From contig NMRA01000065.1 of NCBI GenBank assembly GCA_002633005.1, forward strand, positions 1,097,276-1,161,275: a DNA stretch of 64,000 nt. The letters are read 5' to 3'. The translations under genes and the position numbers were made by a program. The stretch is from Phoronis australis (lineage: Eukaryota > Animalia > Phoronida). The notes below the pieces were generated by a model. It ran no database searches, was not told where the DNA came from, and saw only the letters and a list, made by a program, of their open reading frames with translations. Positions within the stretch are counted from its first letter, which is position 1. Each line of letters begins with the position of its first letter. This document shows positions 27,001 to 63,120 of the stretch, piece by piece.

Positions 27001-30000
27001 TGTCTTCGGAGGTCATAATCAAGGTCACCACTAAAGTACTGACCACTGAGGTTAGGCTGGTGTTGCTTCATCAAAATCACTACCTTTGAAATGTTAATTT
27101 GAAAGGTTACAGTAGGACTCCGAATATCGACTTGTTACGTGTGTCTGTCACAGTGCCGGCTCGACCATCGGCAATCACTGGATACGAAATTCTCGGCTAA
27201 ACTGTTACAGTTACAGCTCAGTAGGTTTCTTGGTCCCCTAAATATTTTAGTAAAACGTTCGTTTTGCTTTGAGAGAAGAATTGTTATTCATTAAGGATTT
27301 TTACTATTATTTTTAACCGCATTTGTGCAGTTTTTGTCGACGCTGATGTCAACTCTGAGGCTCGTAAGATTTGCGTTGACTTCTGAAACATCCACGGGCG
27401 GTTTACATGTCAGGTGTCCTCGACTTAAATTTTCACCCCGTTCCCGTTGGAATCTTTTCTGAAGGCTGTTGCCTTTTGTCTTTGTCATGTCGAGATTCAT
27501 ATGGAAGATAATGTTCGCCAAAGTCTGCGTGAATATCAGTTCGCATACCAGTCTTGCTTGACGAAGCCATTCTCTGATGTCGGACTTCCGCATCACGTGA
27601 CATCATAGGCGGAGCGATCTTCTGCTGGCGTAAGGTCAATTGTTTCATCCAAATGAAAACACATTCGACTAAGCCCATGAATACTGACTAGCTCACTTAA
27701 ATTTGAGACAAGGCCATTGAGCCATTGTGCCGAGAACTGTGCTGGAGACTGGGGTGAAAGATTCACACATTCTCCTCCACTTGTGTGCAAATACTGTTAG
27801 TGCACCAGTTTCCTAATGTCCTGCAGAAGTCGATTACTTTGAAATCAACTAGATTGTGACATCCAAAATGACTCAAATTGCCTATCATGTAGAAAATAAA
27901 AACATTTTATTCAAAGAAGCATGATGCAAGGCTTCTGGAATACACCAGCTTCTGTGAGACACATGTCTGCCACACACTGTCTTGTCTTCCAGCAAATGGA
28001 GTCTAATACATGCTTCTTTTAACCTATCCAGTACCTGACCCTGTACTAATCGCAGATCTTCAAATGATGTTCGACCAGGCACATGGAGAAGTGCTCGTAG
28101 ACAGAAAAGTTCAATGCCTTTTGGACCTGCAGAGTAAACACGGCCAATAAAATTCTTACCCCCTTTTTTCCTATAATGAAGATGAAGTTTTGAACCAGTA
28201 ATTGGGATTTGTAATCAATTATTTACAAAAACGTATTTTCAGACTTGAGTTGTTTTTTAGTGAATGGCTGTAAAAGAATAAAGAAATATGATTAAGTAAA
28301 ATAGGGCCATCCTAGATGGTGACAGCATTCTCGTTTGTCCTGGAGATAAGATTGTGACCTTGGGTACATTTTCATAGATCCTGTCGGGGACCGGCGAGGT
28401 GTATAGCCATGGAAATATTCGATTTCAACCGTTCAATAAATACAGGAATTGAACAGTTATCTTCAAGAAAGGGAATTCTATTGGGTTCAAAATTAACCTG
28501 ACAAACTTGTTTTACCCACTCGCTTTGCATTTTCTTGTCTCTCATTGATGTCCAGTTTATCAAACATTATCACATCAGAGTAATGCAGCCCACAGCAGGG
28601 CAGTAATACTTTGTTAGGATTGGAAAGATGAATGTTGCCAAGAAAACCTTACAAAGAAACAACAACAAAGACAATGTGAAACTCCAATGACAAGAAAACG
28701 AGGTAGCAAATGTGCCTGACTGATGCTTATGGCATTGTGGGTAAATACAGCTGGATTCGAGTGTCGCTGTATAATCCCGCACACCCACCTGGTAGCCATT
28801 TTCAGTTGATATCTCGATGTTCTCCATGACCAGTTTTAACCTGTTGCTTCAACAGGTTTGCAGATGCTCCCGACAGGTTTGGGTAACCTGCAACATACAG
28901 GCTTTGTGTTTGCCAATAACAAAGAATGCGGCTAGATCGAATCCCGAGTTACGTCTTTCTGACAGGTTTGGATTTTCAGTTGTGGAGAACACTAACTATG
29001 TAGCATGTCAAACATAAAATGAAAGTGTCACACATGAAAACATGAGTGCAATTCTACATGTGATAAACCTTATTTGATAACTTGAAAACTGTTTCGTAGA
29101 AAATAGGTCACGAAACATCTTACTTTGGACAGTCTTGGTAGCATACATTATGGTTACCGTGTTTAGTGTGGTGTCATTAGGTATCTACTTGTTGTGAATT
29201 AGAAACAGTAAACATTATTTTTATTTAAACTGCTTATTTGTTGTACAACTTATTGGTGTCCAAAATGTTTTTCTAACATCAATCCTCAATTCTGACAATG
29301 AGAGTAGCGACTTTTGTTATCTTCTGGTTTCTTCTCAAAATGACATAGACCATTCAAACTCCATCAAAAGACCCTCTTTTTCAATTCCCTTTCTGCGCAG
29401 TAATAATCACTATTTCGTGCTACATACCTGGGAAGCCGATGAGTCCGACACCGTGTATTCGGCATGCTTTATCAGAGTGAACCATGTTTAGCGGTCCGTG
29501 TGTCGTGTTTGTGAGTCCATGACTGTATATTTTGGATTAATGAATCGTGTTTTGCGAGTCCGATCCCGTGTATGTGAGTCAGTGAACAGAGTTTGCAAGT
29601 ACGCGAGTAGTGCTTTTGCGTCCAACACCATGTTTAGCAGTCTGTTAACCGAGTAGTTCTGTATTAAAATGGCTGCTATACAACGACACTACTTTCACTG
29701 AGACTCACACTTACAACATGAAACAAAAAGTTTTAGCCATTATAAGAAAGAACCAAGGTATGCTATTCTGTAAAAGTCCAATGAGGCAAAGCCTTGATAT
29801 AGGCACCAGTTTCAAAATGTTCAGCCAAGTAATGACTTTCATCTCGGTTGATCAATGGGTAAGCACCTGACCTGATGCGGGCCTACCCGAGCACTAGTTT
29901 ACAATTGAATTTGAACCCAAAATGCAAAAATGTGGTGATCGTCCTCTATTTATGACCATAATATTTCAGAGCAGGACTGATTCCTCAACAGAAATCACAG

Positions 30001-33000
30001 AACAAATGCTGAAATGAATGATTAAATTGGGAAACATGAAACCTTTCAACAGTTGACCCAGTGGGCTGGTACAGACAAAACCAGGAAAACTCCAGTATGG
30101 CATTACATGGGCATCAGTTTGCTTTTTACAAAAATGGGCAAAAAGTGGACCTATCTGCACTAAAGATTGGAATAAAGGTTGAGATCATGGCCACTTACCT
30201 CTAATATAAAAGTACTTTTAATGAGAATAAGCGAGGAACTCGCAGTCCTTAGTCACAGAAGTTTTAAAGTATGTGCTGCTGCAAAACACTGCGCTTAGTT
30301 TTCCGTCATGGGAACGAAAGGGAAGCAAGAGTGGGGTAGGGGCGGGTGTCTGCGCAGCCGCTTTTGAGTTGTTATTGCCCAACTGACTCGAAGCCAACAT
30401 CCGGATCTCCTTTGAGCATTTAGATTATTTATTATTGTTTATGCAGTTTGTGTGTACATATCTTTGTCTTTATTTCCGTATTTGCAATTTTAGCTTCTTC
30501 ATGTTGTGCCTTATTTTGTAAAATGTCACTAATTATTTTAAACTGAGTGGCATTGTATGCATAGGTGATTAGAGTGAGCCACGTGAGGCCTTTGCTTGTA
30601 CTGGATTTTGTACGAGAATTGCTTTCATGAACATCTGTGATTATGCCTAGCTATGATTTGAACAGGGTAGTTTGAGCTGCGATTTTAAACTTGGAAGTCC
30701 TAAGTGTATGTAAGATTTTCAATGTTAAGAATACATATATTATATGAATCTATCAGCAAAATATTTACCAATATACATTTCAGACGCCAGTAGTGATGAA
30801 TCCAAATGGGAAACCATTCACATTAGCTGCAACAGTCATGTGACCACACCGCCGTTGAAAACTGCAACGACAACTGATCCTGAAGGGGCAGGTGTCACTA
30901 CAGGTCAGTTATTGACCAAGCATCCAGTGTCCACTAGTGAAGGTACTTCTACAGACACCTCTAACACTCGCGGCATGCACTCTCACACGGCACTCCCAGG
31001 TATATTTACTGGTTTTATAACACATAAAACAGTAAAATTACGGCAGTGGGAGAAACTGCACTGGGAATGTGTCACAATTTGGATGGGGTATAAACTAGTA
31101 TGGTGATGAGAAGTTAGAACATTCAGTAGTCACCACGATAAGTAATGGGACATATCTAACAAAGGAACAGCGGATTTGCTATGCTCGTTAGTTCTATTTT
31201 CTTTTGCTGTAGTTGACTGATTTTTGCCATTCAACTTTCAATGACAGTTTTAGTTTTTACAGTTTCTAAAATGGTCAGGCACGAGCTGCTCTACCTCAAA
31301 ACCTGGTGACAAAGTTGTCAGCCTGGTGTCGATTTGTTGCGTATCAGTTGCATTAACGCAGATATTTGTGCCGAGTGAAGTTGCTCTGCATCAGCTGCCT
31401 GCACAGCACCACCTTGTATAGTGTAGTGTAGAGAAACAATACTGATATACAGAGCAATCGGGAGGATTAAGGTTATCTCAAACTTTATTTAGTGGCCTCC
31501 ATTCTAATTTGTATATCAAAAAAGATCAGGCTTTGTCAACTGGTAAAAGAAAAAAGATCAGTGATTATAAAAATATATTTTATATTATGCGCCATTTTCA
31601 TTATTACATCGATGCCTTTTTATTCAAAATTTCATTTTTAAGAAAGATACATTCAAAGCTGTATAAACCCTCGGTCGATTTTATTGAAACCTTTTTTAAA
31701 TGAAAACTTCACCAGTTACCTCAAAAACGCTGTAGGGAATTTTTTATTAGCTTTTTAGTTTAGTTTCGTTTCTATGACAAACTTTCAAAACGTAAGGCAT
31801 TGTTGCAAAAACAGCAGTTATGTTCCTCTTGGTTACACTAAAAAAAACTAGGCCTTTATATCGAAGATATTAACAGCGTTTTTGAGATGAATAAATATTA
31901 AGCTTGGGAAGATTCAGCAAAATCTACCTAAACGTTTTCGTGAACTCGTGCTCCTAAGTTCAAATTAAGTTAATTTGGCGAAGCCAAGAAAAAGCCGATT
32001 ACGTAAGTTGGGACACGTGAGAATCTCAAGGTCTTTGGTTAATTATTCGGTGAAAACTTGTTTTCGGTCAATATGACCTATACATTCCTTAACCATGTTC
32101 GCTATTTTAACATTCACTTGTACTGTTAACGGAATTTATAGTTTATAATTAACTTATCATTAAAACGTTTCAATATTGTTTGTGGGGTTTCCTGCACCTT
32201 ATGTTATCTAGGTCAGAAGGCGGAGTCAACAGTAAGTAGGCCAACAGTCCACTGTATATATAACACCCACCGGGAGGATGACTTAATAAACCAAGTATGA
32301 AATGGACAATAGAAACCGAGTCGGTGATAAATGCTCACCGTGAGGATGAGATCAGAATGGCGAAATGTCTGATAACCAATCAAATTAATGAATTTCTGGA
32401 AGGATTTATCGTTTTTTAACAACTTGCTAGGTTAGTGAACACTTAGTCATGGAGGCTTGCGGCAACTTGGATCATTCGTTTTCAACAGTCATATGCATGT
32501 AGACGCACAACTCCCTCAGGATCAAAACTATGTTTCGTCTTTGTTTTCCATGGCATCTTTCTATCATATGTACACCTTGTTGACTCAATATCATGGCGCA
32601 CACTCTGAATGAAAGGACTGGGAGTACATACAAAGGTGATCTATGCCTGGTGGCAGAATCGGATAAGTAATAAACAAATTTACACGTGGTTCCAAGGTGG
32701 TTCTGCTAAATATTTTTTCTCGCTACACAGCATATATTTCGAATTTGAAGTTCCTCGAGAATGAAGATAAGGTATTTAGCTAGACATGTGAAATATTGTA
32801 AAATCGGCCAATTTTTGTGACTAAGATTTGAGATATCCTTAATGGCAAGAGATTGAACAGACAGAATTATGAATCATGACGTTTCTCTGTATGTGGAATC
32901 ATTATTTTGTCGGATGACAAAAAGCATATACTACAATAATATTCTAACTAGCTCATCAGCAGATAAGGTAAAATTTCTTGTCAACAAAGTTTAACTCCTT

Positions 33001-34925
33001 CCAAAAAGCACAAGACCAGCTGACCTGAAGGCATAGATAAATAATCATTAGGTTCACTAACATAATAATAATTTGAAAATAATCACACACCGCCAGCCTA
33101 ATTCAATAGATCATAGTCAAGTTAACAAATCTTCCTCACATGCAGCTTCCATGATTGTTCATTACTAGCGTCCTCGATCTTTTTCTTACAAGCTCCTAGT
33201 TCTTTCCTCATCAACCTAAATGAAGGTCGTGTACCGCAGGAACAGTATTCAAACACACTGTCAAAATGCCTGTTGTCTTTACAGAAACGCTAATTGTATG
33301 TACCTAATGATCATACAACCACTGTACAATGCATATCATTCTGGATAACTAAAATGAACACCTGATCATTTCAGACAAAGTCATGTGGGCAGTGATTGGT
33401 GGTGTTTTATTTGTTATCGTCATTGTAATCGTCATTGCCATTATATGCTACAGGTAAGTGTATCACTTGAAACATTGTCAGGGGTCTTTAATTCATAAAT
33501 TCAGTCTTAACGTTATGTAGGACCCTAGAAAAATAGCCAAATTTAGCAACTTGGGGAAATCAGATGTCGGAAATTATTGATTGGATTCACAAAAAACTTT
33601 CAGATACTATGCTTAATGCAATGTACTCCAAAATGCTGTTAAGAATTTTCAAAATAACCCACTTTTGCAACAAGAGGGGCTTACAAAGCAGGACTTTGAT
33701 GATATTTAAGGAAAAAATAAAAAAGCTGCAAAAACAAGATTGGACTAACTTAGAAAACTGTAATAGCATTTTTAGACTTTATCTCTTATTAAATTCAATT
33801 TGGTCTCATAATTGATATTGTTATGCTATGAAAGTACATTCCCGTTTTGCTAAATTTTACTAACATGACCCAAGTGGTTGCAGATTGATATAGGACAACC
33901 TGTAACTTATTTTACATTATATTTGAATTTACTTTTGTGACAACAGGTGGCTTATACAATATAAAAAATGCCTGTACAATTATTGGTCTTGGACATGGTT
34001 GACTTGATAAGTATACCAAAATTACATGCAAGATATGTAAATGTTTAGTAGGTCACTTAACAGCCACATGAGATGAGAGCTCTATTACAAGAACATTAAG
34101 GATCCAACGTTTGAGGAAAATAGGTTGTTCCACTGTGAAGTATAACCGGTGTATTCAAATATTTAGCATTGCCAACTGACCAAGTAACAAATTAAAATTC
34201 ATTTCTTGTATTTCTCCTGGTCATGGTTTGACAGAAATTACACGATGAAGGATGCATTTGGTGTCAGCTAAGTTGTTACAATGAGCCAAAATTAAACTTT
34301 TCAAATATAACATGACGATGGAAAATGTGTTCCCAGTTTAAATACAAAACGTCAACTTTGACCAGTATACAAGTAGATTTAGGAATTGAATTTACTGATA
34401 TGAAACAGATGGACAGTGTTAACTGAAGACGAGATCTATTTCAGAAAACGGCGCAGGAAACCCCATAAAGAGAATGCAGTACGTTTCAACAATGACGACA
34501 ATAAAGTGTCCTTCGGTGATGAGGAGGACTACCCCGAAGACCATACATATGCCGAAGTGTCGGATCACCAACAGGGTGCCAACACTGCTCTGAAACAACT
34601 AAGGAATCCTCATAAACATAATGAATACTCGTATGCATATAGTAAGGTTCCCGATGACAATAAGAATACAACAGACTTACAGGGAGCGTACGCGTATGCA
34701 GATGTCCCACGCAATGACAAGAATTACTCACACGCACCAGACGAAGGTACAACAAACCAGCCAGTCAATTCAAGTACTGATGCACCAACATATGCAGCGG
34801 TGAACAAACCATTGAAAAATAACCAAGATGAACTGATTGAAAATAGCCTATACGAGGCTGACGTCACTGCAAGGGACACAATTCCAGCAGATGTGGAATT
34901 GGTTGAAAATGATATATATGAGTAA
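14936..34925 (+). CDS. Receptor gene 1: SP / SUEL-type lectin / CUB-like / S-T stalk / TM / Tyr-rich tail, 504 aa, 6 coding exons
   Basis: Exons 14936-15017, 19026-19322, 23071-23430, 30784-30999, 33375-33453, 34445-34925. All introns are GT..AG with phases 1,1,1,1,2. Total 1515 nt = 504 codons + TAA, with no internal stop. Confidence 0.85.
16095..17409 (+). mobile_element. Non-autonomous Tc1/mariner(pogo)-type element, copy A (gene 1 intron 1)
   Basis: TA-flanked TIRs CTGTATTCGCCCTAATAACCGCC / GGCAGTTATCAGGGCAAATACGG. Homologous along its length to 24814-26305 in the opposite orientation. Confidence 0.85.
18062..18187. repeat. Tandem repeat, 42 bp x 3
   Basis: CACATTCCTGTCTACATCYTCTGCCTCCCTACCGTTTCTGAG repeated three times. 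Confidence 0.97.
19026..19322 (+). CDS. Gene 1 exon 2, SUEL-type lectin-like domain
   Basis: tttcag acceptor and GTAAGA donor. Eight Cys in SUEL spacing: DIC..VEC..LYGKRPNC..YC..KCSGHHQC..SCPG..SNYMTVQYEC. Confidence 0.9.
19630..22130 (-). mobile_element. Degenerate L1/Tx1-like LINE, split by a nested insertion (gene 1 intron 2)
   Basis: IKLLLLPKLIHLFMALPSP and an IWYN-type block at about 21300-22100. The C-terminal NILIICLGKSHIY..PSLTYFKRE block resumes at about 19630-19990. Many stops and frameshifts. Confidence 0.7.
20000..21210 (-). mobile_element. RTE-X-like LINE 3' fragment nested in the L1/Tx1 remnant
   Basis: YKYLG..LFDKMVYPSLCYGAEIWG..GECGRFPL..KYW..SWAS..LTRLRCSNHSLLVESGR..ENEYH..C, in broken frames. 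Confidence 0.8.
23071..23430 (+). CDS. Gene 1 exon 3, CUB-like domain
   Basis: tttccag acceptor and GTATGT donor. DVC..FVSPGFPS..ECSCIL..IHIKFTS..GRFWF resembles the CUB SPxYP...C and terminal GF strands. Confidence 0.85.
24218..26770 (+). mobile_element. TTAA-type (Kolobok-like) non-autonomous element, copy A, truncated and interrupted by the Tc1-type copy B
   Basis: Starts TTAA|GGATAACTC. Segments about 24218-24750 and about 26330-26770 are reverse-complement homologues of 31471-32838. The right boundary is approximate. Confidence 0.75.
24814..26305 (-). mobile_element. Non-autonomous Tc1/mariner(pogo)-type element, copy B (gene 1 intron 3)
   Basis: TA|CCGTATTCGCCGTAATAA ... TTATTACGGCGAATACGG|TA; inverted relative to 16095-17409. 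Confidence 0.88.
27885..28160 (-). mobile_element. Helitron RepHel fragment
   Basis: IGRVYSAGP..ELFCLR..HVPGRTSFEDLRLVQGQV..KEACIRLHLLED, the conserved block between the Rep and helicase regions. Confidence 0.8.
30784..30999 (+). CDS. Gene 1 exon 4, end of CUB-like domain (last Cys) plus Thr/Ser-rich stalk
   Basis: atttcag acceptor, CCAG|GTATAT donor, phase 1-1. Encodes ETIHISCN then TTPPLKTATTT..STSEGTSTDTSNT. Confidence 0.8.
31471..32838 (-). mobile_element. TTAA-type (Kolobok-like) non-autonomous element, copy B, complete (gene 1 intron 4)
   Basis: TTAA at 31467-70 and 32839-42. Imperfect TIR GGTTATCTCAAA / TTTGAGATATCC with RR..YY termini. Confidence 0.8.
33375..33453 (+). CDS. Gene 1 exon 5, transmembrane helix (DKVMWAVIGGVLFVIVIVIVIAIICYR)
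   Basis: atttcag acceptor, AG|GTAAGT donor, phase 1-2, and about 23 uninterrupted hydrophobic residues. Confidence 0.9.
33505..33885 (+). repeat. Dispersed repeat, about 370 bp (second copy at 48136-48490)
   Basis: TCTTAAC..GGACCCTAGAA..TTGGATTCA.AAAAA..CAGATA..AGAAAACTGTAA..ACATGACCCA shared between the two copies. Confidence 0.75.
34445..34925 (+). CDS. Gene 1 exon 6, cytoplasmic tail
   Basis: Phase-2 acceptor gives a RKRRRK stop-transfer run. 11 Tyr, including YAEV, YSKV, YADV, YAAV, ENSLYE and ENDIYE-stop. Confidence 0.88.
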
Positions 34926-41469: not shown

Positions 41470-41548
41470 ATGCCTGGTCATCTTCATTATGTTGTTTTGT
41501 TCATGGTTTTGTCTCTTGGGACCAACTGTAGAGCAGCAGACTATACAA
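41470..41548 (+). CDS. Gene 2 exon 1, signal peptide (MPGHLHYVVLFMVLSLGTNCRAADYT)
   Basis: AAAATG start, hydrophobic core, CRA cleavage-like site, and a GTAAGT donor in phase 1. Confidence 0.82.
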
Positions 41549-44500
41549 GTAAGTAGACATCTCACATCAGTCTTGCTTTAGCTATTAATACTAAAGCAAA
41601 AATCTCACCAATTAAAGATACAATATGAGGGGCAGACGAAATTATATTTTCACATTTTTTTCACAAGACACATAGCATCAAATTAATGCTTTAAATTGTT
41701 CAAACTCTATACCGCAGCTACCATGAGAAAACATTTTGAAAAACTGTGAACATTCGCAGCAATTTTATGGATCTGTAAAAACAAAAAAGGGTAGTCATGG
41801 TAATTATTTTTGTCCTACACAGATTGATTACAATATAACAAGTCAGGTTCTGCTTTCATACTGATGATGAGGAGTGAAACATGCAGTTTGGTATCAGTAC
41901 ACTGAAGCTTCAGACATGAACAAAACCTGCAAACAGATTTGATGGAATTTTGAAAATACCTTAGATGTGTCCACTCCAGCCTAAAACAGAAGAGACTGTT
42001 ATGTAGGACCTGTTGGCAAGTATATAATTAATCAAGTATGTAAAAAACTACAAAAATTAACAATGTAAAAAATATATTTTCTGAAAAGAAACTTGCTTTA
42101 GACTGCTTTTTAACTTTATACCGACTCCCTGCCATCAATTGGGTGGTCTATAACATGGCCTAATTTCATTGACAAAATGTGCAAGATGAAATCTCCAAAA
42201 CCTTGTTACAATATATTTTAGCTTTAGTGTTTGTGCAACATGTTTTATCATAAAATCTCAATAGTCCTATAGCCTGACAACCCCTTCATGCAAGAGTGGA
42301 AAATCTCAAAAAACAATGCATAACAGAGTTCAACAGAACAATGCATAAAACACAGTATGTCAAAGTTTCATAGGATTCTGATAAGCCGTTTCTGAGACAT
42401 GTCATCTCAATTTAGCCAAATTTGGACACTCTCCAAGGTCTTATATAACCTTACAATTGACATGAACTTCCTGCTTTCAGAAATATCTCTATCCAACTGC
42501 TACGGAGGCTGGTTAACTCTCTCCTGCACCTATCCATTAAATTTACGAATCATCGATGGAGAACTACATCGCAGCAAAACAGCGTCATGTGATCTAAGAA
42601 CCACTAAATGCTCTAATCCCATCAGTGCGACAAAGCCGGTTTATATGCGCTCAACTGTTGCAAAGTGTACACAGCAGTATTGCCGTATTCAAGTCGACTG
42701 GGCCAACATCAAATGTGGACTAATATACCTTAGCAACTACGCATCTTTTGATTACATTTGTATTCAAGGTATGTCACTTATTCCACCTAAATAGTACACA
42801 TTTTTATGCACATAACTTAATTAATAAAAACTCCACTATAACTGAGAACTAATTAGTCAACATAGCCTATCATAATATGACAATCATTTTAAACTAAGAA
42901 ATCGGTAAAAAAGTCTTTGAATTACGTCAGCACGCAATATCAAACCAAGCCACTAAGTTAACAGAAAGCTGTATCTGATAACTGCCATTTTCTCATTTGA
43001 CACAAGACTTGAGACAGAAGCACCAGTTTTCTTGACTGAACTTAGGGTATCAAAATCGGGAATCAATGTAAGTGACTCAGTTGCTTAAAATTGGGCATTG
43101 AAATTCTTCATAAGATTAGCTTAGTGTTTGCAAGATAGTTCACAAATGGGACTTAACTGATTACTTTCTAGATGACGATGTGTCACACTTCTGCAGCAAT
43201 AGCTCAAAAGGTGACAGTTCTAGAGGCCTGCTGGAGACTGCACGATATCCCCACCTACAACCGCCTGGCACCACCCTGGACTCTCAGTCGGTTGAGTGTC
43301 GCTGCCAACTGCAATCTTCTTCAGACATATCCCTTGTTATCAACGAGATGTATATGGAACGTATCCAAGAACTTGTGGTTCAAACCATAGACAAACTAAC
43401 CAAAGAAAGAGGTCCTATCTACATCACTTCCAAGACAGTTACATCCACATCCCCAAAGATGGCGATACTGGTGAGGAGCGGATACAATGGAGTCATACCT
43501 GGACGCCTTTCAATCAGATATTTTGGTAAGATGAAATTGCTGATGTCATCGTTTCCGAGATTTTCGTATTTCTCAAAATTCAAAGGGTTGGCATTTAGCA
43601 TAGTAGTCAAGCTGTAGGCATCACAAAAGGACTTTTCAAAAAGTTGAGGATGGCGTTTAGTCAAACTGACAATTTTTAGTTAACCAAGCATTGCTATAAG
43701 CCACTTCGTAAGCAAATCATGCGCAATATAGACAGTGAGCTTCTCATGAGTCGAAGGTGAGTGAACAGCATGCTGCTGTGTTTGAGGAGCTGGAGTGAGT
43801 ATTATGATTGTATTGTGCTATAAGTTACCAAAAGCTTTAGATATGTCATGTACTAAAGTGGTTGAGTTAAATGATGCATGGACATTTCAAAAATAAAATT
43901 CAGAAAATTAGATGATGGCCCTTTAGCCAAACGTAAACATTAATCCAAAGAAATACAAGTAATTGATGAACATCTTTTCAGCAAGCTCTCCAGTGACATT
44001 GAGGTGTTCTCCCTCAGAGATCTCAGAGACACCAGTGATACTACCAGAGACAACTCCAATGGAACTACGGACATCAGCACCCTCTGGTGGAGACTGGAGT
44101 AAACACACAACTATTCAATCAAATCAACAACCTGGTCAAACCTACATGCCAGGTGAATACGAGAAGTGCGAAACACAAAACAAGAGGGCTGATGATACTT
44201 GACAAAGCTTTTGTAACAATCGACCATTTGCGGTATAACACATACCAGGTCTCAAAACTGTTGCAATTTCAAGTGTTGTCTAACAATATGCCTTCAGTCA
44301 AACCCATGAGTTAAGTATTTAGCTCACTGGTCAAATACTGCCACTCAAAAACAACGATGTTTTTATTATTGTATTATTTAGTATTTAGCATCTTCTAACA
44401 AGCTACTATAGCTATAACAAATAGGCCTTCATTTATGTTTTCAAAAGCTCAAATGGCTCAATATGATGGCAAAGTTTTAATTTGATTAGGAGATGAAGCA

Positions 44501-45533
44501 AGCTTGGAAATGTTATTGAAGAATAATGACAAAAAAAAATGTTGTGCAATCTACCTTATTTTCAAATTTCTTCCCTTCTAGTGGCCTCTTACTTGGGTGT
44601 TCTAATAGGACTGGCCCTCAGCTTGCTCTCAATGGCAATTTTGATAACATTCATCATAATCAAAAAGTAAGTAGCCCATGCCAACATTTAGCTCAAACTT
44701 CCGCAATATTATCAACATTTACTCACAAGCATTGCTTGCTATAAGGTAGACAATAGTCTGAATAGTTGGACACTGTTGTGTTAACATTGGAGTTGACTAT
44801 GTGAATTAAGTGATCATAAATAATATGCACATGACAATATTTACACCAAGGTTCTCATGTCAGCCATTACAAGAACTATAGCAGTTATTCAGGAAGCCAA
44901 TCATGCACTTACTTCCAAATGCATGTAGGAGATAGCTAATATAGAAGTTAGAACAATCAAGCTTAAACTTCCTTCTAATTTTATTACAGGAAGCCTACAG
45001 GATGCAAATGCAAACGACGAAAAAAGGCACCATCGAAAAAGTTTGTAACACATACGCCACCAACAATATCAAAAGTGGACATTGGTGATCCCCAACTCTC
45101 CCTTGGCAATGGGCAAATAAGAGGCCAGTCAAACACAGGATATGAAATCAGTGAATATGATGACGACAGTTTTGAGGAGTATGACTCGGACTTTGATGGC
45201 GACTTCAGTGACCGACAGACCAGTGAGACCACAGCCAGCGAGGACTACCTAGTGCCAGTGGGCCACACAACAAAACACAGTGATGGCCGCCAGCAAGCAC
45301 AAGTGACAGAACAGTGTTTGGCAGATAGAAAGGCAGATCCAGTAACATACCATGAGTATGGCCATAATGGGGAGGAGCCAATATATGAAGTCATAGAGGA
45401 AGACTGTTCAAGCGACAGTTTACGGAGGCGTCAGAGCGCAGCAGAAGCATACATTAAGTCTAAGGAGGTTACAGCGATGACCGTGCGAGAACGTCCTGAG
45501 ACTATTGACACATATGATGTGACGCAACTGTAG
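41470..45533 (+). CDS. Receptor gene 2: same architecture, 506 aa, 6 coding exons
   Basis: Exons 41470-41548, 42481-42768, 43172-43525, 43982-44152, 44582-44666, 44990-45533. Phases 1,1,1,1,2. Total 1521 nt, open to TAG. Confidence 0.88.
42481..42768 (+). CDS. Gene 2 exon 2, SUEL-type lectin-like domain
   Basis: ctttcag acceptor and GTATGT donor. Eight Cys; CYGGWLTLSC..LRIIDG..SNYASFDYIC. Confidence 0.88.
43172..43525 (+). CDS. Gene 2 exon 3, CUB-like domain
   Basis: tttctag acceptor and GTAAGA donor. HFC..RGLLETARYP..ECRCQL..GRLSIRYFG. Confidence 0.85.
43982..44152 (+). CDS. Gene 2 exon 4, last Cys plus short P/S/T stalk
   Basis: ttttcag acceptor, CCAG|GTGAAT donor, phase 1-1. Encodes SPVTLRCSPSEISETP. 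Confidence 0.8.
44582..44666 (+). CDS. Gene 2 exon 5, transmembrane helix (VASYLGVLIGLALSLLSMAILITFIIIKK)
   Basis: cttctag acceptor, GTAAGT donor, phase 1-2. Confidence 0.9.
44990..45533 (+). CDS. Gene 2 exon 6, cytoplasmic tail
   Basis: attacag acceptor in phase 2. Juxtamembrane KPTGCKCKRRKK, acidic Tyr motifs, EDYLVP, PIYEVI, ends TYDVTQL-stop. Confidence 0.88.
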
Positions 45534-48041: not shown

Positions 48042-48135
48042 ATGGTGGCTTACCAGGATCTTACTACAAAGAAAATGTCTTGGATATTGATTTTACTGAC
48101 AGTGTGGACAAGTGTAGACATCACGCACACTAGAG
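48042..48135 (+). CDS. Gene 3 exon 1, signal peptide (MVAYQDLTTKKMSWILILLTVWTSVDITHTR)
   Basis: Two in-frame ATGs (48042, 48075), hydrophobic core WILILLTVW, and an AG|GTAAGA donor in phase 1. Confidence 0.65.
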
Positions 48136-51100: not shown

Positions 51101-54100
51101 GAATTACTGCCCTAAGAGCTAGCAATACAGTCAAAGACTGCACCATTTTCTTTTGAATTTGTGATTACAAGGTGGCCAAATGCAATAAAGGGTGTGTGTG
51201 TACATTGTTGTTCGACTGTATTTGAGTTTGTATAAATATCATTTTTTCAGTGAGGCCTGGAATATGTTGCAAGTAGTTTATCACGTTCAATCCACCATCT
51301 TTTTGATCACATCACGTGACCTAATGAATATAAGTCCGAAAAGATTTCTGCCCCGGACCGAGACGCCAACCCAGGACCTTCTGATAACCGTGCAGACGCT
51401 CTAGCCACTGAACAATCAGGACCACTGGTAAAATAAAGAAATCCGATCCATAGAGATTATGGGTTAAGATGTCCACTACTAAGTCTGTGTTTGACCAGTG
51501 GTCCCGATGGCTCAGTGGCTAGAGCATCTGCACTATTAGATGAAGGATGAAGGTCCTGGGTTCGCGTCCTGGTCAGGGGCAGAAATTTTTTCGGACTTAT
51601 AGTCATTAGGTCACGTGATGCGATCAAAAAGATGGTGGATTGAACGGGATAAACTACTTGCAATGTAATTGAGTTGATTGAAACTTTCCATCAAGAAATG
51701 TATAGTTGACATAGAACGAGAACTTTCTCCGAGTAAAACATGACGACATTTATTGAACCTGTGGTGTAAATTTGAGGCAAGACAAATTCAGCATGCAATG
51801 TGCCCTGTAAAGAGTGTAGTGTGAATAAGACTCTATGGCTGTTACGTGTTTCAGAGCTGTATGGGTACCAGATCAAAACATCAGAGAGGTGTATACTAGA
51901 CCCAGACAGACACCTGAAGCTAGAGTGTTCTTATGGGAACATCTTCATTGTGTCTGGCAGCTATGGTCTGGATGATTGTGATGGTGATCCTACCACAGTC
52001 TGGTCTCTAGCCTGCTTGTTGCCCCTCGCGCGACACCAACAGCAGTTGTACCAGAAGATTGTCCAACTGTGCTCTGGGGAGAGGGACTGTGACGCCATAC
52101 AAGTGAGCCAGATAGGTCTGCCTAACAGGTGTCGCCAGCCAGGTGACCCAAACACACAGTACAGTAACTACCTGAGACTGAACTACATTTGTGTGCCAGG
52201 TATGGGGTAGTGTTAAAGAATGTAGACCTTTTCGTTGACGCTGTTACTGGTGTTGATTATTTGTCCAGTTTAAAGTCCATGCTTGATTACAACCCAACAC
52301 AAAAAATCCAAATGCTCACCACCCCTGATATTTTAGTTCCCAATTTAAGCACCATGGTTGGTAACCAAGGAAATGTACAGCAGCTCAAGGTGACAAGCAA
52401 GTGAAAAAAATTATTCTACCTTTCGTTTTCTCACAAAATTTAAGTAGCACCAAATAAATACATTATCACTTTGAAGTTCTATACACTAGTTACCATCAAG
52501 CAGACAATGCTTGGATGAATTGTGGGTAATAACAATAATGGTAGGAGGCTTTAAACAGATCAGTTTTGGTAACTATAGTGGTCCAAACTAGGTGAGATTT
52601 TAGTCTATCAAGTTTGCAGTACAAGAAATGCATGCTGAAATGGCTTTAGGTTCCATTTCTGTAACTTTGAAACTAATATGGAATAGTGCTTCCTGAAGAA
52701 AACCTCAGTCACATAGCACAAATCCTTCTATATTGAACCCTATTCCACTCTGATGGTGTCTGAGATCTAACAACCACTGACCTACTTTTCCAGATTCCCA
52801 GTACAGAAGAATCACACAGGTGTCAAACTTTACCTTCAAAAAACGTGGGGTCATAACAAGTTACGATTATCCAAAGCCCTTGCCTGGCATTACCATCACC
52901 CACAAGTGGCAATGCACTTTCACACCAGAGCAAAGAATGAAAGCCATTGCACTACGAATATTGGAGATGAAACTCATGGACATTGTTAACTGCCAGCAAA
53001 CAGTCATTGTGGAGTTGTACAGAAGAGTCCAGGACCACTCACCATTTCTAGTCCTGCCATACTATTGCCATTATTTGACCAACGGTGAACCAAATGGACT
53101 GGCGAGGAAAATTACTGTCAAATTTGAAAACAGACATTCCAAGGCTGAAGGTCGGTTTGCAGTGCTCATAGCCAGTGATTCGACTATCACTGGGAACTGC
53201 ATGCAGGTGGCACCACTTGTTACAACACTGGAACCAACACATAACCCAACAACTACAACAGTGGTAACACCAACCATAGCCGAGGTAACAACAACAACAA
53301 CTAGTACTACAGCAAAAACGACAACCGCAAAAAGGACATCATTGGTAACAACATTGGGATACAAAACGAGTCTCGCAACAACAACCGAAAGAACATTAAC
53401 CACAATAGATGACAGATCAACAATACCAAAGCCAACAACCACTGCCACGTCGTCTGTGAGCATGATGACAACAACGGAACAACATGAGACCAGAACAGCT
53501 GACACTGGTAAACTGTCTACAATATCATCTGCTGTACTCACAACAATGGCACCAACTAAGAACACTGGCGAAAAGGGTAAAGTGGCAGAAATGTCAGGCA
53601 ACAGCAGTAAGCAACACTTTGTTACTATTGATTCAGGTGATGGCATGACACCTCTGCCACCATGTCATGTGAGACAAACTGTTCCCAATATACAATGTCT
53701 CATAGTAGATGAAAGGTTCCGATAAAATAATCCAAAGTGCACTAGGTATCCTATGCAGCACTGGTGTATGAGCGTGGGAAAGAACACAAGTCATCCTTTA
53801 TTAAGCCTGGTTTGATGGCACAATTTACAGTCACAAGGCTGACTCGCAAACATTACCATTTGCCTCTGTTATCAACAAAAATAGAATGCAAATTACTATT
53901 TCTTTTGTTAAGAAGTCAATGTTGGCACATAATTGTTTGATGGAGTACTCAAGCTTATCAATAGAGGGCTCAAATTTGGAACAAAATTTCAAGTTAAAAA
54001 TTGAAAAACAGCGGCAGTGGATATTTTGTGCATGTGAGCATCTCTACTTTATCAGAAGGCAACACATCTGAAAGAGACATGCTGGACAGCAGATTTTCAT

Positions 54101-55796
54101 GTTGCAAAAAGACTTAAGGTTATTGTGACGAACATTTAGCATTTAACCTATGATAATTTAACTTGTGATATTCATTTAACTTGTTATATTCATTTATTGA
54201 GATACCATTAGATGCATGTTCACTTTCTTTTAGGAGACTTAATAGGTGGAATAATTGGATCTCTCATCACTGTGGTAGTCATAGCAACACTAATCACAGC
54301 TATTTTCTGGTATAGGTAAGAGATGACAATTTTCAATATCCTTAGGCCTTGTCACTATGGATACTCCTAAAGTAACCATGGTAACCCAACAAGGATCCAT
54401 TTGAAATGTTTCCCTCAAGTTGCATGACTGTGATAAAATACAAGACAAAGCTGAATCAGACGAAGTATCATTTCTCCATCATGATGGCTAATTTTGTTAA
54501 CAGCAAAAATGACTGCAAAATTGTAGTGACAGAATGGCTCAGCCACCTGGCTACCTTTCTTGTTCTCCTTCATGAGGAAAGACTACTCCGACAATGATTT
54601 TGGCACCATGAGGGGGAATTTCGCACCATGTTACATGAATACGTTTTGTGTGTATTCACATGAAAAAGTGAAAACAGTCCGAAGGTCAAACACAACAAGG
54701 GAGACAAAATGAGAAATGTACATCAAAATGTGCACAAAATACGTCAATATGCTGAAGCTGCATTTTCCTTTAATAGAGATATAATTACGTCAATCATACT
54801 GGACGTCAACATTTCTTGTCATGATGGCATCCACTTTAAAATTCAGTAAGAACAGAGAGATAACTAGTGATTGACTTGAAGTGGTCAAAATTTGGGAAAG
54901 CTGACAAGACTTACGAGTTTCTGAAGCACCATTGACAAAAGAAATAAGAGTTTACCATATTCTATAGGAGTAGTCAGGCACCGTTATGAACTCAATAGTT
55001 CCAACAGCTAAGCCAGCAGAAATGTATTTTCAGTTGAATTTAGTCATTGTTAGAATACTGTCAAATATCAACAAAATTTTGAGAAAAGTCAAACGATGTC
55101 TCATTATTCAGAATTCAGATTCACAGAAAACTATGTTCAGAAAACTGTTCTTTTAAGAATGTATTCAGTTTCTCAATTTAAACAATCTTTTGTGTTTCCA
55201 GGAGGCACAAAAACAATGACCAGGTGCATAGTAAGTCAGATAGCAATGACTACAATGGAGGGGAGATCTACTGTGAGCCTCATGAAGAAGACCGCTACGC
55301 CAGCTTACAAAGGGGCAAGGTTGGCCATCAATACACAACACTGGACATCCGCAACTACGGACGGCCACGACAGCCAATGAACGACAACAAATACAGCGAG
55401 CCCATAGAAAAGCTGTCTACACCTATGACCGGAGATTCATACGAGAAAGGTGCTCAACACACACAATCTCACCCGTACTCGACACATAGACACGGTCAGA
55501 CGGTGAATTACAGTGGAGGCAATGCCAACAAACTCGCTATCATTGAGCCCATATACACTGAACTACCAGCAAACAACAGGCCGTACAACATGAACCAGCG
55601 TCAACTGCCAGCACTGCCAACAGCTTCACAAGCACCAGGAGTATACAGTGCACAGGCAACAACATGTGACAACCATGGATCACCATTCGAGCCTTCTTAT
55701 TTTGAGTTAGAACCGCCTACTAGCATGGTTCAAAACAACCCTACTTACACACATTCTGGGGAAGTCCCAAAACCTGAAGAAGTGATTTATTTGTGA
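48042..55796 (+). CDS. Receptor gene 3: same architecture with long mucin-like stalk and ITAM-bearing tail, about 652 aa, 5 coding exons
   Basis: Exons 48042-48135, 51855-52199, 52794-53636 (alternative in-phase donor after 53576), 54234-54315, 55202-55796. Phases 1,1,1,2. Total 1959 nt, open to TGA. Confidence 0.82.
48136..48490 (+). repeat. Dispersed repeat, second copy (see 33505-33885)
   Basis: Same blocks as the copy in gene 1 intron 5; begins at the gene 3 exon 1 donor. Confidence 0.75.
48740..50720 (-). mobile_element. 5'-truncated, degenerate L1/Tx1-like LINE ORF2 (RT) in gene 3 intron 1
   Basis: LIHPDQT..FIGQNIRLIQDII, KRGLRQGDPVSSQLFILCVE, IKCLGV, KGRIIITKAFALSKLIH, DGGLKVPD and IWYN blocks, with frameshifts. 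Confidence 0.92.
51267..51663. mobile_element. Palindromic element with two divergent tRNA-derived arms
   Basis: About 165-bp inverted arms around a ~60-bp spacer. The right arm has GGTCCCGATGGCTCAGTGGCTAGAGC (A box) and GGTTCG (B box); the left arm is its diverged reverse complement. Confidence 0.85.
51855..52199 (+). CDS. Gene 3 exon 2, SUEL-type lectin-like domain
   Basis: gtttcag acceptor and GTATGG donor. Eight Cys; LKLECSYGNIFIVSGSYG..CSGERDC..SNYLRLNYIC. Confidence 0.9.
52794..53636 (+). CDS. Gene 3 exon 3, CUB-like domain fused to a Thr-rich mucin-like stalk
   Basis: tttccag acceptor. RGVITSYDYP..WQCTF..ITVKFE..GRFAVLI followed by about 150 aa rich in Thr. The 3' donor is ambiguous (53576 or 53636, both phase 1). 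Confidence 0.82.
54234..54315 (+). CDS. Gene 3 exon 4, transmembrane helix (GDLIGGIIGSLITVVVIATLITAIFWYR)
   Basis: cttttag acceptor, AG|GTAAGA donor, phase 1-2. Confidence 0.9.
55202..55796 (+). CDS. Gene 3 exon 5, cytoplasmic tail with ITAM-like and NPxY motifs
   Basis: tttccag acceptor in phase 2 gives RRHK. 15 Tyr, including EEDRYASL-x8-YTTL, IYTEL, SYFEL and NPTY. Confidence 0.88.
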
Positions 55797-56819: not shown

Positions 56820-57232
56820 TCTCTATATCTGCCCAGCCTACAGGCACACTGTCAAAGGTTGTACTCTATCTGTGCCCAGCCTACAGGCACACTGTCAAAG
56901 GTTGTACTCTATCTGTGCCCAGCCTACAGGCACACTGTCACAGGTTGTACTCTGTGCCCAGCCTATAGGCACACTGTCATAGGTTGTACTCTATCTGTGC
57001 CCAGCCTACAGGCACACTGCCATAGGTTGTACTCTGTGCCCAGCCTACAGGCACACTGTCACAGGTTGTACTTTGTGCCCAGCCTACAGGCACACTGTCA
57101 TAGGTTGTACTCTATCTGTGCCCAGCCTACAGGCACACTGCCATAGGTTGTACTCTGTGCCCAGCCTACAGGCACACTGTCACAGGTTGTACTTTGTGCC
57201 CAGCCTACAGGCACACTGTCATAGGTTGTACT
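56820..57232. repeat. Minisatellite, 36/40-bp unit, about 11 copies
   Basis: TGTGCCCAGCCTACAGGCACACTGTCAYAGGTTGTACTC(TATC) repeated, between genes 3 and 4. Confidence 0.97.
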
Positions 57233-58463: not shown

Positions 58464-61400
58464 GTATAACTGAACTGATTCATGTCTCATGTAGCATTTA
58501 ACAAAACTATTCATTTAGTTAGATGGACAGTTTGTCAATAAGATTGAAATCAACACCCTGCAGTCCAAACCAGTGTTGTTTATCAACACCTACAGCAAGA
58601 ACAAACAGTACTCTACTGGTTATTAATGCTACACAATCAACGTGGAGAAAGTTATTTCACATTATGTCCAGCAGTCATTATTAATAGTTTTTTAATCCGC
58701 TATTAAGACATTACTGTGTAACCCATACTTAGTGTGATATTTCAAGGAATCCAGGCAAGGCATCTCGGTTCAGAGCACAGCTTAAAGCAGCAAAAACGAA
58801 CAAAAACCAACTTTGCAGATAGGTCACTTACTGGCATAAATGTATGTTAAATCATGGAAGTTTTTTATATGGGTGAATGTTATTAACCAAGGTTGCCCAG
58901 TAAACATTTAGATGAGGCCATGTGAAAAAAATTACTTGGCCTAGCAAGCGAGGTTAATAACATTAACTTAATAAAATGCACACAGTTTAACATGTTTACA
59001 CCATATAATTATTTAAATTTTAATTCACATTTCTGTGGCAACTCCTGTGCAGTAACTGCATCACATGACAGAACATTTACAGTGACATGTGACACGATTA
59101 CTGCACAGAGGCATCAAGACGTATAAGGTATGTCACCAGTTTCAGTTTGCTGCTTATTTAAATTAAAAATGATTACTAGGTGTGAGAAAAAAGTTGATGT
59201 ATTTAACACCAGACCATGGTTTATAATAGCTTTAATAGTATTTTATAATTTATCCATGGTGGAAACAGGGTCACACAACTGTCTATTGTCAGTGGCAAAT
59301 TCTTGCCCTAGTAACTTTACAGATGACAAGTAGGGAATTACAGAAGCAGTAGATCCAGGAGTGATCAATAATGTTATCATCAAAGCATGTTTTAATCTGA
59401 TCTTATTATCACTCTGCATAGAATTTACAACTGAACCTTTGTGTTGATCATTCCAGAGTCAATTGGTGGATATGAAGTCAAGACACAAGCACGCTGTTTC
59501 TATAACGCCAATAGGTTCTTTAGCCTCAGTTGTAAAGTAGCGACTAAGATATACATTGTATCAGCCACCTACAGTATAGAGAACTGTAAACGTGGGCCGG
59601 ATAAGTACACAGGGCGGTCATGTTCTAGGCCAGTACATGAGGTGAACCCTGTACAGTACCAGCATATGATCACCCAGTGTACAGCCAGACGACTGTGCTA
59701 CAACAGAATACAGGCCACACAAGCTGACTTGAGGAATCACTGTAACACCACATTCTACACAGACACAGTGACTATTAAGTGGATATGTGTTCCAAGTAAG
59801 ACTGCATGACACACGTTTTTTACTAGTAGTTGCCATACATGAAGCTTTCCAGAACTTTACCCACTTGGGCATCCTACAGCCCAAAATATCCTGCAGCATT
59901 GAAGAAAACGAGTAATTAGCAAGGTGATAGTTGCCACTAAGAATAATGAAACTATACAACCTTCAAGGAGGCAACAGCTAGGGAACATTTGACATTTAGC
60001 TCTTTAACATTGTGCACAAAAGCATCTTGCATGACCTAATCTTTAATTGAGGTGTGCAAAAAGGGCAAGTTGACTGGGGCAAAATGCAATTTCTTTTAGT
60101 TGCATTCACCCCGATATTTGAGACTTATTTGGAGATTTTTGTGTGAATCCCTTGATTATCCCAACACACAAAAGTGACAAATTGTCAGCATAAAGTGGGA
60201 CTGCAAACTTAAAAATGCTGTTTACCAAATACTCAATGGCCACCTAGTCACATGGTGTATTTCATTACGGAGCTGCTGTATCAGAAGATGGCTTTTCACA
60301 AAACACCTTACACAGTATTTGATGCAGACATGCATCCACAACAGTTCTTACAGCATATAGTTAATCCTGGTCTATGACCTGACTCATTTAAGACCTGCGC
60401 TCAAAGAATAAAAAAAAACACCCGTCAAGGACTTTTTCTTTTTGAAGAGCAGCACTATTGAACAATTGAGCAAGGTTTGAAATGCCATGGTTTGCCAAGC
60501 ATTGAGTAAAATCAAACTCCGCAAAAAATAACAGAACCACCTACAGTATGCTTTTTTGACTACAAGCATTTCACCAAAAATGTTTGTGTACTTACCAACT
60601 ACATTTATACTTGATGTCAACTTTCAGCATCTGCAGCATTTGACATGTGTCCCAGCATGACAGAGTCAAAAATTGGGAAGAGGGGAATCTTGCAAAATAC
60701 ACGTTACCCACAATACAGTAGTTTACCACCATCAATGGATTGTCAGTGCAAGCTGTCTGTGATGAAACAGACCACAATATCCATATGGATAGTAGAACTA
60801 CAACTGAACAGTCAGAAGACTGCGTGTTCATCTGAACTGGCACTGACAGCTCCACACCAACCATCAGCCAGGTTTGACTGTCAGTACCGTGCTCAAACAA
60901 TGGTAGTAAGGAAGAATCTAGCAAAAAGTGCTCAAGTAAAGGTGTTACTGACATCTGATGGCATCTCACAGAATGGCCGATACACACTGCTCTATCAAGG
61001 TATGTTCACGCTCAAGTATTGTTAATAGAAAACAAACCAAGTATCAGTTTCAAAATTGTTAAAGCTGTAGGTGACTTTGCATTCTCAGTTTCACATAGTT
61101 ACATTTAATGAATTGAATGGAGTTCACTTGATGCCATCTATGGCTAGACTAGATGCCTTTATTGTTGTCTGGAGCTCTAAGTGCACCTAAGGTTAAACAT
61201 CCTTTGAGTCTGCTTAACCTGCACTGCTTGAGGTGAAAGCCTGTAATCATGCAATCATGCTCATTCAGGTAACTGTACAAATGTACAGGCAGTTAGGAAC
61301 AAGAATGATATCTATCCTGTTATCAAGCTCATACTTTCTAGGAACAATGGCAGTTAATGTCACATGTGGACTCTACCCATTCCAAGTCCGGTCAACGACA

Positions 61401-63120
61401 CAAGCACAATCATCTTCTAGATTGTCATCAATACCTACAGGCCATGGCCTTAACACATCTGTTACACCTTCAATGTAAGTTTAACAGTGGTTATGGAGAT
61501 GTAAGGTTATATTAGCACTACAAGAGCTGCCATACCAAAGTATGTACACCATCCATTCTGGAGATCTGACTTGAGCACAGCATCAACTGTCACACAACCA
61601 ATGTGAGAACATCACTATCTGATCCTGAGATGGAACATCATCAGGTCATAGAATCAACAGATCTACCACAACATCACTATAAGTAGTATGTGTACCAATT
61701 TCTCTTGAGATGTAACCTCATCAGGTCATAGCATTGGCAAATCTGCCACACCATCACTATAAGTAGTATGTGCACCAATTTTTTATGAGATGTGACATCA
61801 CTAGGTCACATCACCAACAGAAATGTCACACCACCAACAAGTATACAAACTGTTCATGACCAGCGCTCCCCTATTCAAATTTCACTGCATTCTTTGGGGG
61901 TATTAAGATAACTGGATAAGAGCTGGTGTAGAGGAGTCCTAATAGCTCTGGCGTTGCTCACGGTGGTAATCACAGACACGCATCTTTGTTCCCTAATCCC
62001 AAAACAAAAGAAGTCATCAAAGTTCAGGTACTGTGGTAAGTGTCAACAGAAATCACAACCACGATAAGAAGCATTCAAGGTTCCCAGTTAGGAAACAGGT
62101 GCCGGTAGTGCCTAATGTCTTGAGGTCTGACATCACCAAGTCACAGTATCAACCGAAGTGTTACACCATCAATGTATGAGTACCGACAATTTCTTGAGAT
62201 GTACTATCACACAGCTGTCATAGCAACACTTGGAAAGCCACCACATTACCTGCTATACCAGCTATGCACAGCTAGCTTTAAAAAAAAACAAGTTATTTAC
62301 AATATACCAAGTCTTTGTGGGACCCCAGTGCAAGTAGTAGATAAAACAATTAAACAAACTTCAGTGTAAACAATCTGGTCAATGGCCAGGCTCATGTAAG
62401 CTCTCTATTCCCGGTTTTGAAAATGACAGAATTAAAAATGAAAATTAGCCAAAATTGTTGTATTAGGCTTCAGTTCTCTGATACCCATTTACGGATGCTT
62501 TCGAATCCTGGCACCAGACACTGAAAGAGCATATAAGAACGTTTAATGGACTAGATTGATATCTGAACAAACCTCAACTTAGCAACCACTGCCGCTTGTA
62601 GTTGAAACCTAACAAGAGGTTTTTGTAATATCTTCTATATAGTTGCCATCTTCTTCCAGAAACAAGCCTGAGCCAACTGTTACGCCAGCTTCCATCTCAA
62701 AAGGTATTTATTGTAAATTTTCAATGTTATATTTAGAATACGTAAAAGTCGCAAAAGTCACCAACCTTAACTTAAAATGGCAAAAAGGACCAAGTATTGT
62801 TAGTCTCCATGCAAGTATATCAATAGACCACTTGCATGTTTCCTAATTTAACAGGGGATTAGTGGAATCAAATTAGGCTGTTAGTTTTGCTGTGGAAATC
62901 CAGTATGAGGTCTGTGCAATAACAATTTTAGCATTATGAGGAAGGGTGGGACAAAATCAGCATTGTTTCTCATCTCGAAAAAGACGTGTTAGCATGGTAA
63001 ATATTAGTAAAACGTTAATCGATCATCCGTTTGATGTGCAGAGGCTGTAGCTGGTGGAGTGAGCGGTGCTGTTGTGGTTCTTTTGGTGCTGACAGCAGTC
63101 ATAGTCTTCTTGTATATCAG
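58388..63120 (+). CDS. Receptor gene 4 (3'-partial; tail exon outside the window)
   Basis: Exons 58388-58463, 59457-59795, 60628-60999, 61342-61474, 62660-62703, 63042-63120. Phases 1,1,1,2,1,2; open frame of 347 codons + 2 nt. Confidence 0.8.
59457..59795 (+). CDS. Gene 4 exon 2, SUEL-type lectin-like domain
   Basis: ttccag acceptor and GTAAGA donor. Eight Cys; FSLSC..KIYIVSATYS..CTARRLC..IKWICVP. The N-terminus resembles gene 3 (GYEVKTQARC vs GYQIKTSERC). Confidence 0.9.
60628..60999 (+). CDS. Gene 4 exon 3, CUB-like domain
   Basis: ctttcag acceptor and GTATGT donor. DMC..RGILQNTRYP..DCQCKL..NGRYTLLYQG. Confidence 0.85.
61342..61474 (+). CDS. Gene 4 exon 4, last Cys plus S/T stalk part 1
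   Basis: tttctag acceptor. Encodes AVNVTCG..STTQAQSSS. GTAAGT donor at 61475 in phase 2. Confidence 0.75.
61415..62250 (+). repeat. Degenerate 80-bp tandem repeat starting inside gene 4 exon 4
   Basis: GAGATG..CATCAGGTCATAG..ATCT.CCACA.CATCACTATAAGTAGTATGTG units begin at 61627, 61707 and 61787, with weaker units either side. Confidence 0.75.
62660..62703 (+). CDS. Gene 4 exon 5, 44-nt stalk mini-exon (NKPEPTVTPASISK)
   Basis: The cttccag acceptor gives the phase 2 required by exon 4, and the AAG|GTATTT donor restores phase 1 for the TM exon. Confidence 0.65.
63042..63120 (+). CDS. Gene 4 exon 6, transmembrane helix (EAVAGGVSGAVVVLLVLTAVIVFLYIR)
   Basis: tgcag acceptor, CAG|GTGGGT donor, phase 1-2. 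79 nt, the same length as the gene 1 TM exon. Confidence 0.9.

Follow-up and report, generated by a model that had tools for sequence, protein, structure and literature searches.

Gene 3, a predicted receptor gene, lies in a window of 64,000 nucleotides of Phoronis australis DNA, the whole stretch that was analyzed. It is flanked by three paralogues that are encoded on the same strand and share its exon plan; their domains are 11–32% identical. The window is intron-rich animal DNA with 34–42% GC in most 2-kb bins, and it contains an assembly gap at ~13933–14575 and 613 N overall. Gene 1 (19026..34925, + strand) encodes lectin-like, CUB-like, stalk, transmembrane (TM), and tail segments in a stop-free model, in which a signal-peptide exon was not identified. 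Gene 2 (41470..45533, + strand) follows a six-exon plan and encodes 506 aa, also in a stop-free model. The stop-free model of gene 4 (59457..63120, + strand), with tentative stalk exon boundaries, comprises lectin-like, CUB-like, stalk, and TM segments and was matched by the gene 3 lectin exon in tblastn at E 4e-16; a tail exon for this gene was not found within the 64-kb window. Elsewhere in the window, an ORF at 5809–6357 had a weak GIY-YIG match (E 0.002) and is probably a fragment of a Penelope-like element, and a tandem array at 56821–57233 consists of about 10 copies of a 39- to 43-bp unit.

Gene 3 model, transcription, and ectodomain

The gene 3 model is a 632-aa frame with GT-AG introns, donor phases 1, 1, 1, and 2, and no internal stops. 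The predicted order of the protein is a signal-like N-terminus, a SUEL-like domain, a CUB-like domain, a Thr/Ser stalk, a TM segment, and a tail. Coding exon 1 (48042..48135, + strand) carries the ATG and a stretch that resembles a signal peptide by eye, and ends in a phase 1 donor. It is followed by an exon resembling SUEL/rhamnose-binding lectins (RBL) that encodes eight Cys residues (51855..52199, + strand) and by the exon of the CUB-like domain and stalk (52794..53576, + strand), which was assigned from a sub-threshold Pfam CUB match and from composition. For the latter exon, the donor at 53576 was chosen; an alternative in-frame donor at 53636 would give 652 aa. The TM exon (54234..54315, + strand) encodes a hydrophobic stretch without a charged residue and has a phase 2 donor, and the last exon (55202..55796, + strand) encodes a predicted cytoplasmic tail of 197 residues.

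Transcription was assessed in three RNA runs (X5, X6, and X7) that share a species label, with 18–19% of the reads of each run being used. In X5, sense reads (+ strand RNA) occurred at depths of 0.8–6.9 in every bin with a predicted gene 3 exon, including the bin of coding exon 1 (47864–48204), and they extended across the last exon and downstream of it. X5 depth was zero in intron bins 47523–47863, 52297–52637, and 53661–54001, 0.9 in intron bin 54684–55024, and far higher in repeat-bearing intron bins. X6 and X7 had no reads across 52638–53660 or 55025–56047. Gene 3 appears to be transcribed in some tissue or state. The joined gene 3 frame is a prediction, because none of its splice joints is among the RNA joints listed, which are dominated by repeats. 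Upstream of the coding exons, a non-coding first exon is suggested at ~47200–47350 by low X5 sense coverage of that bin (depth 0.44) and by a GT donor at ~47351.

Two repeats lie in front of the lectin exon. In intron 1, ~48500–51000 is occupied by a high-copy LINE-like remnant (minus-strand ORF at 49452–50234; class assigned by eye, with no Pfam match), whose summed contig depth was 550–3000 versus ~52 for unique DNA. Just upstream of the lectin exon, at ~51280–51640, an element bounded by inverted repeats and containing a tRNA-like part reached a depth of ~18000 and is probably a SINE or MITE.

Several comparisons place the lectin exon in the SUEL family at the level of the fold. The top three ESM Atlas clusters for the gene 3 exon were SUEL_Lectin clusters scoring 0.94–0.95 (family on 21–36% of members), the best of them at 0.95 with 211 features in common, and the neighbors came from Rotifera, Annelida, and Chordata. 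A profile of the four paralogous lectin exons matched latrophilin RBL domains at E 3e-5 (E 0.028 for the single sequence), and these domains were its best sequence match in the structural database. The gene 1 lectin matched Pfam SUEL_Lectin directly (E 1e-5). The gene 3 domain has eight Cys, and six Cys are invariant across the four paralogues.

The sequence hallmarks of a canonical sugar-binding lectin are degenerate in gene 3. RBL domains are reported to carry YGR and DPC motifs and to contact sugar through Glu, Tyr, Gly, and Lys (PMC3269628). The gene 3 domain reads YGL in place of YGR, lacks DPC, and carries Asn instead of Lys; next to the first Cys, at the site of the latrophilin Glu, it has Ile. 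Both the Glu (placed by alignment) and the Lys that would contact sugar therefore appear to be lost in gene 3. As all four paralogues have other residues at both of these positions, classical rhamnose or galactose binding is doubtful, and a protein or a non-canonical glycan seems the more likely ligand, judging from the sequence.

Assignment of the CUB-like domain is weaker than that of the lectin. It is modeled as a beta-sandwich at about 52796–53200, followed by a stalk with 45% S+T over 121 aa. Pfam CUB matched gene 3 at E 0.038 (14.7 bits) and gene 4 at E 0.00097 (19.9 bits), both under the gathering cut-off of 21.4. AlphaFold models of the lectin and CUB-like domains were poor (pLDDT 42), and the low-confidence CUB-like model retrieved only generic jelly-roll/beta-sandwich matches (Z<=6.3), with no CUB entry among its best 50 structure matches. 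The single PDB sequence match of the CUB-like profile was irrelevant, and Pfam matches to RWD, ELMO, V-set, and Toxin_6 (E 0.007–0.16) were rejected as noise.

Tyrosine motifs of the gene 3 tail

The gene 3 tail contains 15 Tyr residues, including four YxxL and three YxxP sites, and ends in I-Y-L. On the + strand of the last exon, 55284–55343 translates in frame to EEDRYASLQRGKVGHQYTTL, which the earlier note had described as an exact ITAM. The published ITAM consensus is (D/E)xxYxx(I/L)x6-8Yxx(I/L) (PMC8005572; PMC7582382), and the spacer ranges given in PMC4034164 and PMC3598417 agree with it. Gene 3 conforms to this rule, with D/E-xx-YASL-x8-YTTL at 55287–55343, an acidic residue at −3, a spacer of 8, and a distance of 12 residues from Tyr to Tyr (codons at 55296 and 55332), so the description was correct. 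An additional acidic residue, E at 55263, lies at −11 from the first Tyr; it was spotted post hoc and extends the pattern to E-x7-E-xx-YASL-x8-YTTL (55263..55343, + strand). We take this residue to fit the longer form of Reth's motif. In the GT-AG model without internal stops, the first ITAM Tyr lies ~33 residues past the predicted TM helix, close to the distance of about 30 aa proposed before, and the motif is predicted to sit in the cytoplasmic tail of a single-TM type I receptor.

The further tail motifs named in the earlier note were likewise present in the translation. IYTEL (55551..55565, + strand) is the third YxxL, SYFEL (55695..55709, + strand) is the fourth, and NPTY, an NPxY motif (55737..55748, + strand), lies 15 residues before the C-terminus and ~140 residues downstream of the ITAM. 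The three YxxP sites flank the ITAM at 55269–55403 (tail Tyr 23, 52, and 64) and are presumably, by preference, sites for Crk/Nck/Abl-type SH2 domains. The C-terminal ends of gene 3 (I-Y-L, 55785–55793) and gene 2 (T-Q-L, 45522–45530) resemble, we assume, class II and class I PDZ-binding ends, respectively. No ITIM or ITSM consensus was found in the gene 3 tail, and neither ITAM Tyr is in an ITIM context. Searches with the motif itself returned little: no Pfam family at E<=10 for the motif peptide or for the tail's first 66 residues (in a search whose HMMER filters discard short matches of low score), no PDB sequence match for the motif peptide, and no usable ESM Atlas match for the motif region. 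A Logan DNA contig covers 54486–55664 with four differing letters; its run may be the source sample of the window.

The odds of obtaining the motif by chance depend on what is held constant. When single residues of the gene 3 tail were shuffled, the ITAM core arose at a frequency of 0.019, the core preceded by D/E at 0.0021, and the long form at 0.0003. Keeping each Tyr and its next three residues intact raised these values to 0.18, 0.023, and 0.0026, and keeping the seven-mers from −3 to +3 gave 0.19, 0.14, and 0.017. Much of the improbability of the ITAM arises from the general YxxL enrichment of the tail (four of 15 Tyr, P 0.002, with no YxxV). Under the block nulls, the long form fell inside the first 75 tail residues in 0.08–0.4% of shuffles, a figure to be read with the −11 criterion having been set post hoc. 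NPxY arose in 12% of tail shuffles, and we therefore give the gene 3 NPxY little weight.

These numbers bear on a tentative alternative that we consider possible, if short of probable: the tail would be a multi-Tyr docking or sorting tail, in which each YxxL acts alone as a single-SH2 site or clathrin-adaptor signal together with NPxY and YxxP, the ITAM spacing is incidental, and gene 3 is an endocytic, adhesion, or co-receptor protein like EVA-1. With four YxxL in the tail, 18% of block shuffles place two of them at ITAM spacing, and this long tail of 197 aa has 13 Tyr that are not part of the ITAM. We presume that gene 3, so understood, would also resemble DCBLD-type receptors. To our knowledge, EVA-1 has neither a CUB domain nor a mucin stalk. 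The RBL domain also occurs in the non-immune EVA-1 and latrophilin, and both EVA-1/EVA1C (C21orf63) and latrophilin are described as membrane receptors with a SUEL/RBL domain (PMC3269628), as gene 3 is predicted to be. Latrophilin is nevertheless a 7TM GPCR, and its domain differs from that of gene 3, which is without the canonical YGR and DPC (PMC3269628). Against a docking tail, the ITAM pair is membrane-proximal and preceded by acidic residues at −3 and −11, and the long form arises in only 0.3–1.7% of shuffles under block nulls.

A second alternative, which we regard as quite improbable, is that the pattern arose by chance, without a signaling role of its own, in a tail that evolves fast and is probably disordered. 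The six frames of the 64-kb window contain 17 bare ITAM cores (six of these in one degenerate repeat array on the minus strand, ~7230–8290), the motif was chosen by its pattern out of many windows, the paralogues are divergent (11–32% identity between domains), and their tails barely align. The D/E-preceded core and the long form matched only once each in the same scan, both at the gene 3 ITAM. Chance is also opposed by the residue at +3, on which selection is suggested by the YxxL enrichment of gene 3 and the corresponding excess of YxxV in the gene 1 tail (P 0.0026); both P values become ~0.03–0.04 after correction for 15 tests. The gene 3 ITAM beats most ITAM pattern matches, yet with YxxL richness kept it would arise by chance in 2–14% of cases, which makes it suggestive, not proven. 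A genome rich in Tyr-rich tails will hold a few such motifs by accident.

Paralogue tails and searches for orthologues

The tails of genes 1 and 2 contain no ITAM under any of the six patterns tried, and no consensus ITIM or ITSM was found in the tails of genes 1, 2, and 3. The gene 1 tail (34446–34922, + strand) has 11 Tyr, with four YxxV and no YxxL/I. The YxxV Tyr are at tail positions 35, 65, 84, and 116 (34548–34802), 19–32 residues apart, and their enrichment mirrors the YxxL bias of gene 3. Gene 1 also has two distal hydrophobic-x-N-x-x-Y motifs, placed like the gene 3 NPTY. The gene 2 tail has nine Tyr, one of them in YxxI, and ends in T-Q-L. The counts of 11, nine, and 15 Tyr in the three tails, together with acid-preceded Tyr and distal NxxY, would also suit a family whose habit is Tyr docking and not ITAM signaling. 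In a weak MAFFT alignment of the tails, gene 1 EDHTYAEV falls near gene 3 EEDRYASL, and gene 2 PIYEVI aligns with gene 3 PIYTEL (the third YxxL), which suggests that the ITAM may have been built from an older single-Tyr module. The gene 1 Tyr that possibly matches the first ITAM Tyr reads YxxV and has no partner; this, like the missing ITAM in both paralogue tails, counts against Syk/Shark signaling by gene 3.

A wider proposal, which we think rather unlikely, is that the four genes form an undescribed paired-receptor array on a de-sugared SUEL, CUB, and mucin scaffold. Gene 3 would be the activating member (YxxL, ITAM, and Syk/Shark), gene 1 would dampen it (YxxV and an SHP-2-type phosphatase), and the ectodomains would have diverged for different ligands. 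From SHP-2 preferences, we presume that the gene 1 YxxV sites would suit a phosphatase of this type. The role of gene 1 as an inhibitory member is speculative because no consensus ITIM or ITSM occurs in any of the three tails.

Orthologues were sought in collections that are mostly prokaryotic, so their absence there is weak evidence. None of the 235 candidates in which the tail was compared with longer proteins was orthologous, and none was found among 90 candidates for the CUB-like exon or 2852 candidates for the four-lectin-exon alignment. HMMER, run in full with the lectin exon as query, gave two matches, both spurious and from bacterial repeat proteins, and a metagenome scan gave one match in 127 stretches, 18 residues long in a bacterial-looking ORF of 61% GC, which was rejected. 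In the literature searched, which included few subscription papers, we found no receptor combining SUEL, CUB, a TM segment, and an ITAM. The lectin-CUB-mucin ectodomain with an ITAM appears to be new; invertebrate ITAM receptors are already known.

Known ITAM receptors and a candidate mechanism

The closest parallel in geometry is oyster CgIgR, an invertebrate single-pass receptor with one D/E-xx-YxxL-x8-YxxL ITAM, like gene 3 (PMC6994640). Its ITAM is reported to recruit CgSyk and to promote ERK phosphorylation and phagocytosis (PMC6994640). The ectodomains differ, with five Ig domains in CgIgR versus SUEL-like, CUB-like, and mucin-like segments in gene 3 (PMC6994640). Gene 3 may function in the manner of CgIgR but does not belong to its family. 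For the vertebrate subunits CD3, CD79, FcR-gamma, and DAP12, which share the motif consensus with gene 3, a spacer of 7, an intron splitting the first Tyr module, and an acidic TM residue are described (PMC4536121). Gene 3 was rejected as such a subunit, with its spacer of 8, its motif within one exon, and its uncharged TM segment.

The NPxY of Draper is membrane-proximal to its ITAM, whereas that of gene 3 is distal. The analogy to Draper/CED-1 engulfment receptors, which the earlier note had drawn from the combination of NPxY and YxxL, is weak. Draper, MEGF10, and CED-1 are described as single-pass proteins with tails that combine NPxY with an ITAM or YxxL, as in gene 3, and with an EMI and EGF-like/NIM ectodomain, which gene 3 lacks (PMC8092387). 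Both tail motifs are indeed present in gene 3, which may function in a similar way; given the missing EMI/EGF domains and a distal NPxY with 12% chance odds, we rejected its membership in this family.

Receptor arrays offer further comparisons. Among Hydractinia Alr proteins, 14 (six that are bona fide and eight that are putative) are reported to have ITAMs in divergent tails, and homologues of Syk and Shark are also reported from this animal (bioRxiv 2022.03.04.482883). The Alr genes resemble the present array as tandem single-pass genes with divergent tails, some with an ITAM and some with an ITIM (bioRxiv 2022.03.04.482883). They differ in having Ig/Fn3 domains and 41 reported loci, in contrast to four genes with SUEL-like and CUB-like domains and no consensus ITIM here. 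The Biomphalaria PTC1/GRC, PTC2, and LG5R clusters are likewise tandem, divergent, and single-pass with lectin-type outer domains, but these are galactose-binding/fucolectin and scavenger-F-like domains (PMC13712769). Neither ITAM nor SUEL occurs in the main text of that paper (PMC13712769).

The most likely reading, at about even odds, is that gene 3 is a lineage-restricted receptor that would signal through Src and Syk/Shark, by analogy with oyster CgIgR. A ligand would cluster the single-pass receptor, a Src-family kinase would phosphorylate the two acid-flanked ITAM Tyr, and a Syk/Shark-type kinase with tandem SH2 domains would dock on the doubly phosphorylated ITAM. The distal YxxL, YxxP, and NPxY motifs might add SH2/PTB adaptors or drive internalization. 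The sequence and the reads show the motif and its frame, the stop-free model, the SUEL-like domain, the four-paralogue array, and X5 sense coverage of the exons; the splicing, surface topology, phosphorylation, kinase, and outcome we infer. The earlier note had called gene 3 an activating or phagocytic receptor. The membrane-proximal position in a type I model, the X5 sense reads, and the CgIgR geometry are as expected of a functional ITAM, and the words "activating" and "phagocytic" were left without support. For the SYK of amphioxus, inhibition of NF-kB is reported (PMC13344425), so Syk binding need not mean activation or phagocytosis.

Outside vertebrates, few receptors represent ITAM signaling through Syk/Shark: Draper, CgIgR, one amphioxus receptor with an ITAM, and the Hydractinia Alrs, the last of these on the basis of the motif. 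The array described here offers a neat comparison, in which one scaffold carries tails with opposite biases at the +3 residue. If the gene 3 motif is functional, the SUEL-CUB-mucin architecture would be an added class of ITAM ectodomain, leaving the concept unchanged, and it would support the repeated grafting of ITAMs onto unrelated, fast-diverging invertebrate receptor arrays.
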